Positions 31,037-35,365 are shown, counted from the stretch's first letter. The stretch: DNA of 64,000 nt from Bacilli bacterium (GCA_017435255.1 JAFSFI010000010.1:103219-167218); one strand, 5' to 3'. The notes: generated by a model not told the origin, from the sequence alone. Numbers and translations: made by a program.

Positions 31037-31150
31037 ATAAATATCAACAAAACTAATTGTTAAAACAATTAGTTTTTATTATGACTTTTGAATTATTGAA
31101 TTTTTCATTACCATATTATATACTTATATTAATAATAGGAGTGTAATAAT

Positions 31151-32950
31151 ATGAAAAGAATAAGATTTTTTGTGTTTGGGGTAATTGCTTTATTTTTGTT
31201 TGTTCCTAAAGTTGATGCTGGACTAGTTAGTGAGTTGTTTGATATTTCTTTTTATTATTTTCATTATCTTGATGAAAACGGAAGAGAAACATATGATTCT
31301 TTTTATAATTGGGGTAGTGAAGATGAAGAAAAAAACGGAATTAAAATTGATAAAACTAGTATAGATACTATAAAAGTTACTATAGATGCCGATTCCAATG
31401 ACATGTATCAAAAGTGTAAGCCAGTGTTAATGTGGGTGCATAAAGCGGATGGTTTATTAGATTCCACTAAATATACAGATATTAAGCAGTGGTATATTAA
31501 TAAATTGGAGGAAACATTTTTGATTGTCGCTATTGACGATTATACTGAAGATGCTGTTATTGAAGTTAATGTTCCTACAAAACTTAATTTGGGATTAACT
31601 GGATTGCTAAATGGCGGCTATTACGAAATTGAATTCTATAGTGAGGATGCTATACCGGAACAATTAAAGTATGCATATAAGCCTCAATCATATACGTTAG
31701 ATGAACTAGAAGATTATATAAAAGTAGATATGAGTGATAACATAGAAGACTATTATGATGCTGATTCTGGATTTAGATCTAATGTGGATGGATTTACTTT
31801 TAAAAATTCTGACTATGTAGAAAAGGGCGGTCATTGTGCCGGGATAGCTGCTGTAACAACTGCTAAGTATAACGGATATAACTTAAAAAAAGAATATTCT
31901 AATGGTGATACAAAATATAATATTGATAACAGCTATACTTGGTATGACAGCGTTTATGGAAGTGCATCTATTAGAGATTTAAAATTAAATGATAAAGAAT
32001 TTTTAACCAAGAATTCTCCATCATTAAATAAAATAGATGATAAAACAGCAACTGCATATCCTCTTGTTTTGTTTAAGTCTTATAACACCAATGATAAAGC
32101 TTTTTATGATTTGCTAGGTTACTATTTAAGGGAAAATAACAAAGCCGCATTATTAAGAGGAAATAGTTATATAAAAGGTGTTAGTTTACAAAATTTAGAA
32201 AACCGTTGGAGTATTATTGATTATGTTGCTAGTTATTTAAGACAAGGAAAAGCTGTTACTGTAAACATAAGTAAATCTGGTGGAGGTCATGCTATAGTTG
32301 GTTATAAGATGGAGAAAATTGATGATGATACTTACAGACTTTATTGTTATGATAACAATTATCCAGATGACATGAAACTTAGATATATAAAAGGAAAACC
32401 ACAAAACGGGGAACAAAACAAAGACGGAAGTTATAAAAATATATTTTGGGAAAAAGATGATATTTATATTGATTTTACTAAAAAAACAATAGTTGGATCT
32501 ACTGGTTATGTTGGTCAAAGGGAATATGATGTTTTTGAATTTGATTCTAGTCATACATCTATTGATGCTAATTCTAGTAATGGGCAAATTACATTTACTC
32601 TTAATAAAGGTGATTCAGTAGGAGTATTTAATTACGGTAGTGAATCTAATGAAGTTATTGCCTATAGGGCTTATCCAGTTATTGTAAACGAAAACACTGT
32701 TAAAATTAGAACTTTTGCTTTTTATAAAAGTGGTGAAGTAGAGGAAGTTACACAATCTATTAATACTAATATTATGATGGATTATACTTATTTAGGATGG
32801 TATAAAATTGGTGATTCTAAGATAATTATTACAAAAGATGGTTATAAGTTTGATAATAATGGAACCGACTATGTAGAATGCTATGTTGCATATGATAATC
32901 ATACCAATTCATTTGGTAAGATTAAAGTTCGAATTCCGATAATAAAATAG
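31151..32950 (+). CDS. secreted papain-fold cysteine peptidase, C10 (streptopain)-like
   Basis: Signal peptide MKRIRFFVFGVIALFLFVPKVDA. Putative catalytic Cys in GGHCAGIAAV and His in GGGHAIVGYK, ~155 aa apart (SpeB is ~148), resembling SpeB QHAATGCVATA / GGHAFVIDG. RBS aggag upstream. Confidence 0.5.
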   Translation: MKRIRFFVFGVIALFLFVPKVDAGLVSELFDISFYYFHYLDENGRETYDSFYNWGSEDEEKNGIKIDKTSIDTIKVTIDADSNDMYQKCKPVLMWVHKADGLLDSTKYTDIKQWYINKLEETFLIVAIDDYTEDAVIEVNVPTKLNLGLTGLLNGGYYEIEFYSEDAIPEQLKYAYKPQSYTLDELEDYIKVDMSDNIEDYYDADSGFRSNVDGFTFKNSDYVEKGGHCAGIAAVTTAKYNGYNLKKEYSNGDTKYNIDNSYTWYDSVYGSASIRDLKLNDKEFLTKNSPSLNKIDDKTATAYPLVLFKSYNTNDKAFYDLLGYYLRENNKAALLRGNSYIKGVSLQNLENRWSIIDYVASYLRQGKAVTVNISKSGGGHAIVGYKMEKIDDDTYRLYCYDNNYPDDMKLRYIKGKPQNGEQNKDGSYKNIFWEKDDIYIDFTKKTIVGSTGYVGQREYDVFEFDSSHTSIDANSSNGQITFTLNKGDSVGVFNYGSESNEVIAYRAYPVIVNENTVKIRTFAFYKSGEVEEVTQSINTNIMMDYTYLGWYKIGDSKIIITKDGYKFDNNGTDYVECYVAYDNHTNSFGKIKVRIPIIK

Positions 32951-32959
32951 GAGGTTAAT

Positions 32960-33664
32960 ATGAAAAAAATAAAATGGATAATTCCTATGATAGGTATAGC
33001 GATGATCATAAGTGGAATTGTAATAATTTTTATTTCGAAAGATAAGAAAATCTCACTAGGTCAAGAGTTTACTGAAGATTATGTTTTTGATCCAAGTCTA
33101 GTTGATTATACAAAAGACACTTTACCGGAAGAATATAAAAATTATGATTTTGATGGTGATGGGTTGAAGAACAGTAAAGAAATTGAATTAGGAACTGAAA
33201 TGTACATGGTAGACACGGATAAGGATGGTCTTAGTGATTCGGAAGAGGCTAATAAAACAAAAACAGATCCAATAAAATGGTCATCTAGAGACGATGATAT
33301 GTCAGATTTAGAATATACTATTATAAATAATGCTTCGTTTAAAAAAGGATATAGCAACTTAGATATTAGTGGTTATAGAGTATATTTAGAAAATGCATCT
33401 GATCAATTATTTATCATATCAAAAGCAAAAACTATAGCCTTCGATGAGTTGGAAACGGTTTCTGAAGCATATCAAATTAAAAACTTTACTGGTAAGATGG
33501 CTTTGGATTGTAGTAGTTATATTGATGAAGTAGTTAATAGTATATCTATATACAAAATAGTAAATAAAAAAGCAGAAAAGATTGATTCTGTAGTAGAAGA
33601 AAATGGATTTTTATCGTTTGAAGTATCTGATGGAGATATTTTCTGCGCAGTTTATTCAAAATAG
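32960..33664 (+). CDS. membrane-anchored protein with thrombospondin-type-3/dockerin-like Ca-binding repeats
   Basis: N-terminal TM anchor. Motifs DFDGDGLKNSKE and DTDKDGLSDSEE (DxDxDG). 9 nt downstream of the peptidase gene. Strong terminator after it. Confidence 0.5.
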   Translation: MKKIKWIIPMIGIAMIISGIVIIFISKDKKISLGQEFTEDYVFDPSLVDYTKDTLPEEYKNYDFDGDGLKNSKEIELGTEMYMVDTDKDGLSDSEEANKTKTDPIKWSSRDDDMSDLEYTIINNASFKKGYSNLDISGYRVYLENASDQLFIISKAKTIAFDELETVSEAYQIKNFTGKMALDCSSYIDEVVNSISIYKIVNKKAEKIDSVVEENGFLSFEVSDGDIFCAVYSK

Positions 33665-33683
33665 ATATTTTATATTTAATAGC

Positions 33684-33711
33684 GCTCAACCTAATAACGG
33701 TTGAGTTTTTT
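33684..33711 (+). terminator. rho-independent terminator
   Basis: gctcaacc-taataac-ggttgag followed by tttttt. Confidence 0.75.
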
Positions 33712-33795
33712 ATAACAGTAAATTTTAGATAATAATGTTTGTGTTTCAAATTGTATTAAAATGTTTTATAATACAAATATAGAGGGTGATTAAGA

Positions 33796-35112
33796 ATGAG
33801 GCAAAATAATGGTGCAGATTCATTGAACAATCAAGTTGATATTATTAAGAAAAAACAACAAGCTGTTAATGAATTGATTGATAAAATAGCTTTGTCTTTC
33901 AAAACAAGTGGGATTACTAAAAGGCATGTAGATAAGGCTAAGAAATATTATTTAAATCTTAAAGAAGTTAAATCACCTTTGATAATTGATGAAGAATTTA
34001 AACAATTTTTGATTAATATTGAACAAGAGATGTATGCTTTGGCATTAAACACAGAAAAAAATTATATTAACAAGTTGAAGGAATATAATAAGATAATGAG
34101 TGATGGCGAAGAAAAACAGACCCTATATGATGATAAGATAAATGATAATAAGAATAAAAAAGAAGAAAATAAACAAGAAGAAAGGTCTGGTAAAACGTTT
34201 GATGAAAGGGAAAAAGATCGTAAAGAAATAATATTGCAAGATAATGAAAGTAACTCAAACAATAATTTAAATAAACAAGAAGAATTTACAATAGAAAAAT
34301 CGGTTGCAAAAGAGCCACCTAGTGAAGTACCTAGTAAATGTGAAAAAGATGATGAAGATAGAGAAATATATGAGGATGGAAATAATACAATCGATGAATT
34401 GTTGGAAGATAAAGATGATAGTCAAGTACCAGAGAAAATAGAAATAGTCGAACAGAATTCAAAAGAAGAAAAAGATAATATTCCGTTAGAAATAATTGAT
34501 AATGAAGCAAGTATTATTGATTTAAGAAGAGATAGAATTATAAAACTGATTGATAATGTTGCTGAAGAATATAAAGATAGAGGTATTTTGGATTCACATG
34601 TACATAAAGCAAAGAAATTCTATTTAAAACTTTTAGATGAAAAATATTCAGATATATCAGACGAAGAGTTTGAAAAAACATTAAAAGATATAGAACAAGA
34701 ATTATGTGTTTTAGCAGAGGAAACAAAAAACAACTATATTAATTTTTTAAAAGAAGGGATTTTAAAAAATCCTAAGATAGATTTAGATGAAAAGAATCAA
34801 ATTATGGAGGAGATATATTTAACTAAATCTGAAAAGACGAAAATTGTAACTAAATTGATAGATAGAATAGCAGAAGAATATAGTAGTGATGGGGTATTTG
34901 ATAGACATGTAAAAAAGGCATATGGTATATTTTTAAATAGAGAAGAGGTCTTAAGTGATAGTTTATCATTAGATGAATTTAATAAATTTATATTAAAGAT
35001 TGAACAAGAATTGTATTCATTAGCTGAACAGACAAAAAAGAATTATGAGTATTATAGAAAAGAATCTGAAAGTTATGGTAAAGTATTAAAAAAAGGTGAA
35101 GATATTAAGTAA
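33796..35112 (+). CDS. acidic cytoplasmic protein built from three ~75-aa homologous repeats (unknown function)
   Basis: Repeat 1 LIDKIALSFKTSGITKRHVDKAKKYYLNLKE..IEQEMYALALNTEKNYINKLKE. Repeat 2 LIDNVAEEYKDRGILDSHVHKAKKFYLKLLD..IEQELCVLAEETKNNYINFLKE. Repeat 3 LIDRIAEEYSSDGVFDRHVKKAYGIFLNREE..IEQELYSLAEQTKKNYEYYRKE. A highly charged K/E/D linker separates repeats 1 and 2. Confidence 0.55.
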   Translation: MRQNNGADSLNNQVDIIKKKQQAVNELIDKIALSFKTSGITKRHVDKAKKYYLNLKEVKSPLIIDEEFKQFLINIEQEMYALALNTEKNYINKLKEYNKIMSDGEEKQTLYDDKINDNKNKKEENKQEERSGKTFDEREKDRKEIILQDNESNSNNNLNKQEEFTIEKSVAKEPPSEVPSKCEKDDEDREIYEDGNNTIDELLEDKDDSQVPEKIEIVEQNSKEEKDNIPLEIIDNEASIIDLRRDRIIKLIDNVAEEYKDRGILDSHVHKAKKFYLKLLDEKYSDISDEEFEKTLKDIEQELCVLAEETKNNYINFLKEGILKNPKIDLDEKNQIMEEIYLTKSEKTKIVTKLIDRIAEEYSSDGVFDRHVKKAYGIFLNREEVLSDSLSLDEFNKFILKIEQELYSLAEQTKKNYEYYRKESESYGKVLKKGEDIK

Positions 35113-35365
35113 TATATATCTAGAAAATAATAGAGTTGCTTTTTAAAGGTAAATGTTTGTAAAAATAATGTTATAAGAAGTTTCTAGAAAAAAATAATTA
35201 TTTGATTATGTTGATAAATAAAATACAATATCTGTTAATTACTATATTAATTTAGTAAAACCCTTGTAAAAAAACTATAAAACCGTTGCTTTTGTATAAA
35301 AAATGTGATAATTTATATATGTAAGCATACAGTGCTTAAAAAGAAAATACGGAGGTAATAATATT

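Follow-up and report, generated by a model that had tools for sequence, protein, structure and literature searches.

An accessory islet between spoIVA and hup in a lineage of uncultured Bacilli, probably acquired from a neighbouring clade by recombination

The window analysed here is a stretch of 64,000 nucleotides from a low-GC (~28%) metagenome-assembled genome (MAG) of an uncultured Bacilli bacterium (GCA_017435255.1, JAFSFI010000010.1:103219-167218), whose gene products carry NCBI names of the type 'hypothetical protein IJO43_...'. Between spoIVA and hup, the gene for HU, it holds an islet of ~4.4 kb which was probably acquired from a neighbouring clade by recombination, and the cargo of which would encode a secreted Cys-His-Asp enzyme (g1), a partner protein with TSP3 repeats (g2) and a third protein, g3. 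The initial annotation of this DNA had proposed a ~4.2-kb insertion of three genes between the two conserved genes, and this was confirmed, as exactly three long plus-strand open reading frames (ORFs), of 599, 234 and 438 aa, separate spoIVA from hup. The proposed borders, positions 31037 and 35365, had to be moved at both ends, with the foreign tract running instead from ~30743-30782, inside spoIVA, to ~35195; the interval 35256-35365, formerly counted as part of the insertion, is the native hup promoter region.

In the course of events that we propose, the common ancestor of the window's species and of a sister lineage (L085/L097) would have gained ~4.4 kb from a neighbouring clade within the same group of uncultured gut Bacilli. 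What came in would have been the last ~250 nt of the donor's spoIVA together with the three genes downstream of it, and the mosaic spoIVA and the spoIVA relic described below, taken together, suggest that ~30.76-35.2 kb arrived as one piece. On the left side, a homologous crossover within spoIVA would have left this gene intact but mosaic. On the right, an apparently non-homologous join ~60 nt 5' of the stop codon of the recipient's spoIVA would have produced a stub, which then decayed in front of the native hup promoter. The pattern would be that of homology-facilitated illegitimate recombination, as defined in PMC3240628, and a Campbell-type single crossover followed by a deletion would give the same result; the recombination mechanism is one that we infer from the sequence.

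The site was compared across 80 species-level genomes with a SpoIVA 73-94% identical to that of the window, by collecting their spoIVA neighbourhoods and mapping the window's proteins on them. None of the 80 relatives carried g1, g2 or g3 within 10 kb of spoIVA. In 17 of them hup was found 3' of spoIVA on the same strand, and 13 of these 17 had a spacer of only ~110-250 bp (<260 bp). A tight spacer is seen at both ends of the identity range, in L001, L003 and L004 (91-93%), which are closest to the window, as well as in L077 and L079 (73%), which are most distant from it, and adjacency of spoIVA and hup is therefore the ancestral state. Among the four closest relatives (L001-L004) the gap is ~110 bp, except for 615 bp in L002. 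In Bacillus subtilis, spoIVA presumably likewise adjoins hbs. The lineage-specific accessory insertion suggested earlier is therefore supported by the comparison, for the trio is shared by none of the 80 relatives at this locus, and L001-L004 have spoIVA and then hup.

The trio was found at the spoIVA-hup site only in the window's species and in the sister lineage. In the former it occupies the same site in three other assemblies from independent samples (L089, L090 and L091), and in the latter the same site in L085, L086 and L097, the SpoIVA of which is 99% identical to that of the window at the protein level, with a DNA identity of 91%. A chimera produced by assembly or binning, which the metagenomic origin of the source would allow, is refuted in practice by the identical arrangement in the independent samples, by the diverged copy in the sister lineage and by a divergence that is coherent across flanks and cargo, and its probability is negligible. 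Synonymous divergence (dS) between the two lineages was 0.51-0.57 for g1, g2 and g3, against 0.58-0.62 for spoIVA, cca and dnaD. Because the dS of the cargo is about that of the flanks and the site is the same in both lineages, we conclude that there was a single acquisition, before the split of the window's species and the sister lineage, and that the genes have been retained since. The ratio of nonsynonymous to synonymous divergence (dN/dS) was 0.09 for g1, 0.105 for g2 and 0.21 for g3, so that all three cargo genes are under purifying selection.

The left scar of the insertion lies in spoIVA itself (29561-31036, plus strand; TIGR02836, E 5.8e-208), which is a mosaic gene. Over nt 1-1200 the window's spoIVA is 83-86% identical to the L001-L004 clade vs 75-78% to the L009 clade, whereas over nt 1230-1476 it is 81-85% identical to the L009/L012/L005-7 clade and only 70-74% to L001-L004. 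Neighbour-joining trees of these two partitions were incongruent. A total of 111 clade-distinguishing sites were then scored as A-type (L001-L004 clade) or B-type (L009/L012/L005-7 clade), and the ratio of A to B sites changed from 60:11 before spoIVA position 1183 to 5:28 after position 1222 (Fisher p 1e-11). Nucleotides 1-1183 are thus of the recipient type and nucleotides 1222-1476 of the donor type, and this switch of informative sites places the left breakpoint at 30743-30782 of the window. L085 and L097 display an identical breakpoint pattern. As the sequences of L001-L004 stay close to those of the outgroups L019 and L024 in the 3' partition, it is the window's lineage that is recombinant.

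The right edge of the insertion is marked by a relic of a recipient-type spoIVA 3' end, ~60 nt long and decayed (35196-35255, plus strand), with a pseudo-stop TAG at 35253-35255. When its register was fixed by the adjoining conserved spacer, the relic matched the spoIVA ends of L003/L004 at 16 of 21 positions (P 4e-5) and at 34 of 60 (P 7e-5), and a hand count showed it to be of the recipient type, with 16 of 21 matches to L003 vs ~11 of 21 to L009. The native spacer and the hup promoter resume at ~35235-35262 in alignments to the relatives. BLAST of 35235-35365, which includes the last 21 nt of the relic, gave 82-86% identity to L001/L003/L004, and L002 matched with 86% over 35249-35364. By BLAST to L001-L004, 35256-35365 (plus strand) is the native spacer between spoIVA and hup, which includes the promoter and ribosome-binding site of hup. 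It is followed by hup (35366-35638, plus strand; PF00216, E 1.2e-33), likewise of the recipient type, as its product is 96-97% identical in amino acids to L001/L003/L004 vs 91% to L009/L012. Of the features expected of homology-facilitated recombination, the anchor in spoIVA and the relic of the recipient were thus observed, while the sequence of the join region is too decayed for any microhomology at the right joint to be read or scored.

Two further differences were seen at this edge. The right edge of L002 carries the same ATTTAGTAAAA variant as the window. Moreover, window positions 35114-35234 (121 nt, between the g3 stop codon and the last 21 nt of the relic) have no counterpart in the sister lineage, in which the relic follows directly on the g3 stop (L085:6027-6031); either the sister lineage later lost these nucleotides, or the window gained them by insertion.

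Two results, the breakpoint inside spoIVA and the leftover of the former spoIVA end on the right side, show the change to be a gain here rather than a loss elsewhere. If the trio had instead been ancestral at the locus and deleted independently in the relatives, its host-like GC content and codon usage, the age of the cargo, which equals that of the separation from the sister lineage, and the rearrangement of the spoIVA region in many relatives would all be accommodated. Such a history would, however, need many identical clean deletions, since 13 of the 17 syntenic relatives, including the closest and the most distant, share a tight spacer of conserved sequence, and it would leave the duplicated spoIVA 3' relic and the clade switch inside spoIVA, both signatures of gain, to be accounted for. 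We therefore regard it as very improbable.

Several observations weigh against acquisition of the islet as one piece from a neighbouring clade. An unanchored Smith-Waterman comparison of the relic with shuffled sequences was not significant (p 0.07-0.3); for this reason the evidence for the relic is moderate, and the relic was retained because the neighbouring conserved spacer fixes its register. Neither the 80 species representatives nor the genomic contexts of the homologues included a donor in which g1 follows spoIVA, and L009/L012, which belong to the donor-like clade, hold different cargo between spoIVA and hup. Finally, the breakpoint may have arisen independently of the insertion and lie ~300 bp from it by chance.

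The base composition of the islet, for which the initial annotation had predicted a deviation from the flanks, was tested and proved to be within the range of the window. GC content was 0.25-0.29 (window mean 0.28), GC at third codon positions (GC3) 0.17-0.20 (0.18), and codon-bias residuals were unremarkable, as would be expected if the donor belonged to a neighbouring clade within the group. Pfam and NCBIfam scans and ORF calls revealed no integrase, recombinase, transposase or relaxase in or near the tract; neither a tRNA nor an Rfam element was found at it, and there was no exact or long direct or inverted repeat in its flanks, the sole duplicate being the decayed spoIVA end. A phage origin received no PHROG match at the 0.01 level (best E 0.065-0.082). 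No relatives of g1 were found on viral contigs in IMG/VR, and its model had no fold match in BFVD at E <= 0.001. None of the PADLOC models for anti-phage defence matched the cargo.

These results bear on a second possible origin, in which the islet derives from an integrative or conjugative element that inserted site-specifically, with the spoIVA 3' end as its attachment site, the replacement end representing attL and the relic attR, and that later lost its integrase and transfer genes. Integration into the 3' end of a gene classically leaves that end duplicated at both borders, and the site holds other foreign DNA in some relatives. Between spoIVA and hup, L009 (12020-13970) and L012 (11504-13452) carry what is probably debris of a conjugative element, with one gene for an AraC-like regulator and another for a type IV secretion coupling protein (PF02534, E 3e-43), and on this account the site can be said to have taken in foreign DNA repeatedly. 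In L002 (gap of 615 bp; extra DNA at 7826-8325) and L051 (758 bp), ~0.5 kb of unrelated extra DNA is present in each case. The tract of the window, however, has none of the integrases, recombinases, transposases, relaxases, exact repeats or tRNAs searched for, and its donor-type spoIVA portion comprises ~250 nt of real neighbouring-clade sequence rather than a short att core. Furthermore, g1-g2 pairs elsewhere lie in unrelated chromosomal contexts, though L081 has a gene with a phage domain and L084 a weak transposase-family hit, and no viral contig encodes g1. An origin from such an element is accordingly held to be unlikely. Transfer by recombination from the neighbouring clade remains the preferred explanation, to which Campbell-type or site-specific integration with subsequent decay is the main alternative.

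The order of genes at the locus is der, spoVIF, spoIVA, g1, g2, g3, hup, cca, dnaD, nth and femAB. The claim that each gene of the trio has its own ribosome-binding site was borne out, with Shine-Dalgarno sequences AGGAG before g1, AGGAGG before g2 and GAGGGTGA before g3. The three genes are, however, not independent, since g1 (31151-32950, plus strand) and g2 (32960-33664, plus strand) are separated by 9 nt and form one operon, whereas g3 (33796-35112, plus strand) is a separate transcription unit. The g1-g2 operon ends in an intrinsic terminator (33684-33712, plus strand; hairpin 33684-33706 followed by a T-run, dG -11 kcal/mol, z -4.3), and a second terminator hairpin lies 3' of hup (35646-35671, plus strand; dG -12.1, z -5.5). 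Both of these had been named in the initial annotation, and both proved real by their free energies and z scores. A third had been missed, namely an AT-rich, terminator-like hairpin with a T-run directly 3' of spoIVA (31049-31076, plus strand; dG -10.2 kcal/mol, z -4.7); it lies within the imported DNA and does not occur in the spoIVA-hup spacer of L001/L003/L004. No terminator-like hairpin was found after g3. Upstream of this gene, TTCAAA-16 nt-TATAAT (33745-33772, plus strand) is a candidate sigma-70-like promoter, identified by consensus match only and kept in L085.

The product of g1 had been described as a secreted cysteine peptidase. Its secretion is upheld by a Sec signal peptide (cleavage VDA|G), while its identity as a peptidase would follow from invariant Cys, His and Asp residues rather than from any database match. 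The protein of 599 aa has beta-sandwich domains at its N- and C-terminal ends and a central alpha/beta domain at ~196-415, and its AlphaFold model had a mean predicted local distance difference test (pLDDT) score of 81.7, with >90 in the core. Around 30 close homologues were found, 45-67% identical and all unnamed, and a profile search of 1.8 billion cluster representatives yielded 96 proteins, the remote ones of which match the central domain only. Cys229, His380 and Asp401 are retained without exception, both in 28 close sequences and in 23 remote ones (21-43% identity). Among 23 diverse sequences of the domain, the only invariant elements were G-x-C-x-G, the His, Asp-x-Asn-x-Pro and one Tyr (Y190 in the numbering of the domain profile A4), the three residues just named being part of them. 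In the model, the Cys starts a helix (229-241), the His is on a strand (378-389), and the Asp comes right after another (394-400). Both this placement on helix and strand and the conserved order of Cys, His and Asn/Asp are as in clan CA. The sequence and the model thus point to a papain-like (clan CA-type) thiol peptidase or amidase with an extracellular substrate.

Against this functional assignment stand the searches for known relatives, in which g1 displayed no significant sequence or fold similarity to any established peptidase. It matched no Pfam or NCBIfam family, and its profile retrieved nothing from PDB sequences. The domain profile A4, when searched against the same PDB sequences, had its best match in the catalytic-Cys motif of staphopain, at a non-significant E of 0.31-0.68. 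Foldseek of the full model against PDB and BFVD returned mainly Ig-like domains, none with E <= 0.001, streptopain reaching a probability of 0.13 and MCF 0.03-0.05. A Cys-His-Asp triad also occurs in transglutaminases, acyltransferases and amidases. In our reading g1 would work like a papain-type thiol hydrolase, with no known peptidase family established for it.

The product of g2 (234 aa) combines an N-terminal membrane helix, replaced by a lipobox in one homologue, with TSP3 repeats and a conserved C-terminal domain. The match to PF18884 was above threshold (28.1 bits, cut-off 25, residues 85-106) and was also obtained with its homologues. The description of g2 as a Ca-binding membrane protein thus stands, in the form of the membrane helix and the TSP3 repeat. 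In six other genomic contexts, with host GC of 27-44%, a g1 homologue was always followed by a g2 homologue, 10-16 nt later. In addition, 174 of the 234 residues of g2 could be aligned to the N-terminal portion of the protein P0051 (30% identity, E 3e-23), the C-terminal part of which is a catalytic domain of the g1 type, and other remote relatives similarly have TSP3 repeats and the Cys domain in one polypeptide. With strict operon linkage on the one side and fused relatives on the other, there is good evidence for a joint action of g1 and g2, and we infer that g2 would serve as a membrane-surface tether or an activating subunit of g1, through a putative physical contact between the two proteins. 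The possibility that g2 is a staphostatin-like inhibitor was considered and ruled out by its N-terminal membrane anchor and by its homology to the fused enzymes.

In the wider family, of which ~90 cluster representatives were detected, the catalytic domain is fused to a TSP3 calcium-binding stalk in some members and to adhesin modules (LRR, Big_2 or VWA) in others. Among the remote relatives, TSP3 repeats, VWA, LRR_5/Big_2 or RCC1 modules are joined to this domain, which matches no model of Pfam or NCBIfam. A tentative reading, short of probable, is that gut Firmicutes possess an extracellular enzyme family, so far undescribed, of which g1-g2 is the split form and in which a membrane-anchored stalk subunit would recruit or activate a secreted catalytic subunit and so provide for surface display independent of sortase. 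The lineages concerned have been reported to be without sortases (PMC10868615).

The third gene had been annotated as encoding a triple-repeat acidic protein, and both the three repeats and an acidic linker were confirmed. The g3 protein (438 aa) has no signal peptide and consists of three helical repeats of ~87 aa (residues 14-100, 238-324 and 341-430), with an invariant His in each, and a disordered, acidic linker of ~130 residues (104-235). Only five other g3 clusters were found in 5.8 billion, and it is the fastest-evolving gene of the region. The repeats were modelled with confidence, and fold and profile searches gave generic helical bundles only, no match being convincing. A match to HEPN_DZIP3 was rejected as noise, since it was sub-threshold (17 bits vs a cut-off of 27). 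Elsewhere, homologues of g3 are not linked to g1-g2. On this sequence evidence g3 would be an orphan cytoplasmic three-repeat helical protein, encoded behind a candidate housekeeping-type promoter. One of its homologues, P0036 (L087:3185-4870), lies directly 3' of a CotZ-family coat gene (PF10612, 32 bits), which is a single weak hint at a spore connection of g3. P0036 was also observed to have an extra N-terminal domain of ~230 aa, which has no Pfam hit and contains a GG...DLDL motif reminiscent of pol-beta-type nucleotidyltransferases.

The position of the trio between spoVIF-spoIVA and hup, and the location of P0036 3' of a CotZ-family gene, would suit a role of these genes in sporulation (e.g. 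in remodelling of coat or cortex by the mother cell) as the reason for their place beside spoIVA, a view which is compatible with a horizontal origin. Likewise, CATATTATA lies 5' of g1, is kept in L085 and resembles the -10 box of sigma-K. Promoter motifs of this kind are, however, not distinguishable from chance at 72% A+T, and a reading of the signals as promoters for sporulation sigma factors was consequently left as weak. A terminator hairpin separates spoIVA from g1; the promoter candidate of g3 and, as judged by eye, those of its homologues are sigma-A-like (TATAAT); six other genomes place g1-g2 beside unrelated housekeeping or accessory genes; and closely related species that bear spore genes are without all three. 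A sporulation role is thus unlikely.

To judge by the labels carried by its relatives ('uncultured Bacilli', 'Clostridium sp. CAG:710' and 'Acholeplasma sp. CAG:878'), the source of the window sits near the uncultured orders RFN20, RF39 and ML615J-28. These have been reported to comprise a mix of predicted spore-formers and non-spore-formers, and the sporulating members of such orders are discussed in PMC10868615. One relative, L019 (OZ006981.1, a circular MAG of 1,309,958 bp), is a complete genome of 1.31 Mb which encodes SpoIVA and SpoVIF, and would be very small for a bacterium bearing sporulation genes.

Other variation was observed around spoIVA. Between spoVIF and spoIVA, many relatives, among them L009 (7069-9919) and L012 (7144-9933), harbour a set of three genes, for a secreted CARDB/Ig-like protein of 171 aa, a polytopic membrane protein with an S26 signal-peptidase domain at its end, and a protein of the DUF5305 family, which resembles a TasA/SipW-type arrangement. 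Similar gaps of 2-5 kb between spoVIF and spoIVA occur in L005-L008, L018, L019, L024 and L053; in the window this gap (29472-29560) is empty. Both flanks of spoIVA are thus variable in the group. In ~29 of the 80 relatives (L010, L013, L015, L020, L021, L025-L027, L029, L030, L033 and others) the nth-dnaD-cca-hup block is inverted and lies 5' of der, which is a recurrent or ancient inversion around der-spoVIF-spoIVA. Further upstream in the window, 5' of der, two conserved ORFs without a Pfam family (26934-27398 and 27443-27832; 154 and 129 aa) are also present in L097.

The locus offers a clean natural case of genes passing from one clade to its neighbour among gut Bacilli that are uncultured and have reduced genomes and spore genes, and both scars are still legible. 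It would show that homologous or illegitimate recombination moves genes in a group without genetics, and it singles out the flanks of spoIVA as a repeatedly variable site in this group. The cargo, in turn, brings to light an extracellular Cys-His-Asp domain which is widespread and invariably linked, through an operon or a fusion, to TSP3 repeats, and thereby offers a testable hypothesis for 'hypothetical' proteins of gut metagenomes. The secreted family carried by g1-g2 appears to be undescribed, as none of the Pfam or NCBIfam models searched covers its catalytic domain.

Taken by itself, the islet is an ordinary small accessory genomic islet in a conserved backbone. Homology-facilitated illegitimate recombination is known from naturally transformable bacteria, and islets formed in this way share with the present one a single homologous crossover in a conserved flanking gene, another end that apparently joins inside recipient sequence without detectable homology, and a lack of mobility genes. 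The event in the window differs in being old (dS ~0.5) and in being deduced from comparative sequence alone. With integrative elements that target 3' ends, the islet has in common the duplication of a gene end at both borders, with the target left intact, and the occurrence of other foreign DNA at the same site in L009/L012, including a coupling protein of type IV secretion systems. It departs from these elements in having no integrase and no exact att repeats, and in a replacement end that is sister-clade sequence over ~250 nt.

Staphopain (MEROPS C47) and streptopain (C10) are secreted papain-like cysteine peptidases with a partner gene directly downstream (staphostatin). g1 resembles them in being secreted, in the order of Cys, His and then Asn/Asp, in its GxCAG, which aligns with the GWCAG of staphopain, and in the small partner gene that comes next; the spacing of 21 residues from the His to the third residue is also that of staphopain. 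In contrast, its matches to these enzymes are not significant (E 0.3-0.7; Foldseek 0.13), and g1 has extra beta-sandwich domains on both sides of the catalytic one. The partners also differ, since staphostatin is a cytoplasmic beta-barrel inhibitor, whereas g2 is a TSP3 protein that is anchored in the membrane and shares homology with the N-terminal part of the fused relatives. Its nearest counterparts are the calcium-binding bacterial surface proteins with TSP3 repeats (PF18884), with which g2 shares a match above the Pfam threshold and loops of the type DxDxDGxxDxxE. It is set apart from other PF18884 proteins by a conserved domain of ~130 aa, without a family, after the repeats, and by a wider family in which the repeats are coupled, through an operon or by fusion, to the Cys-His-Asp domain.

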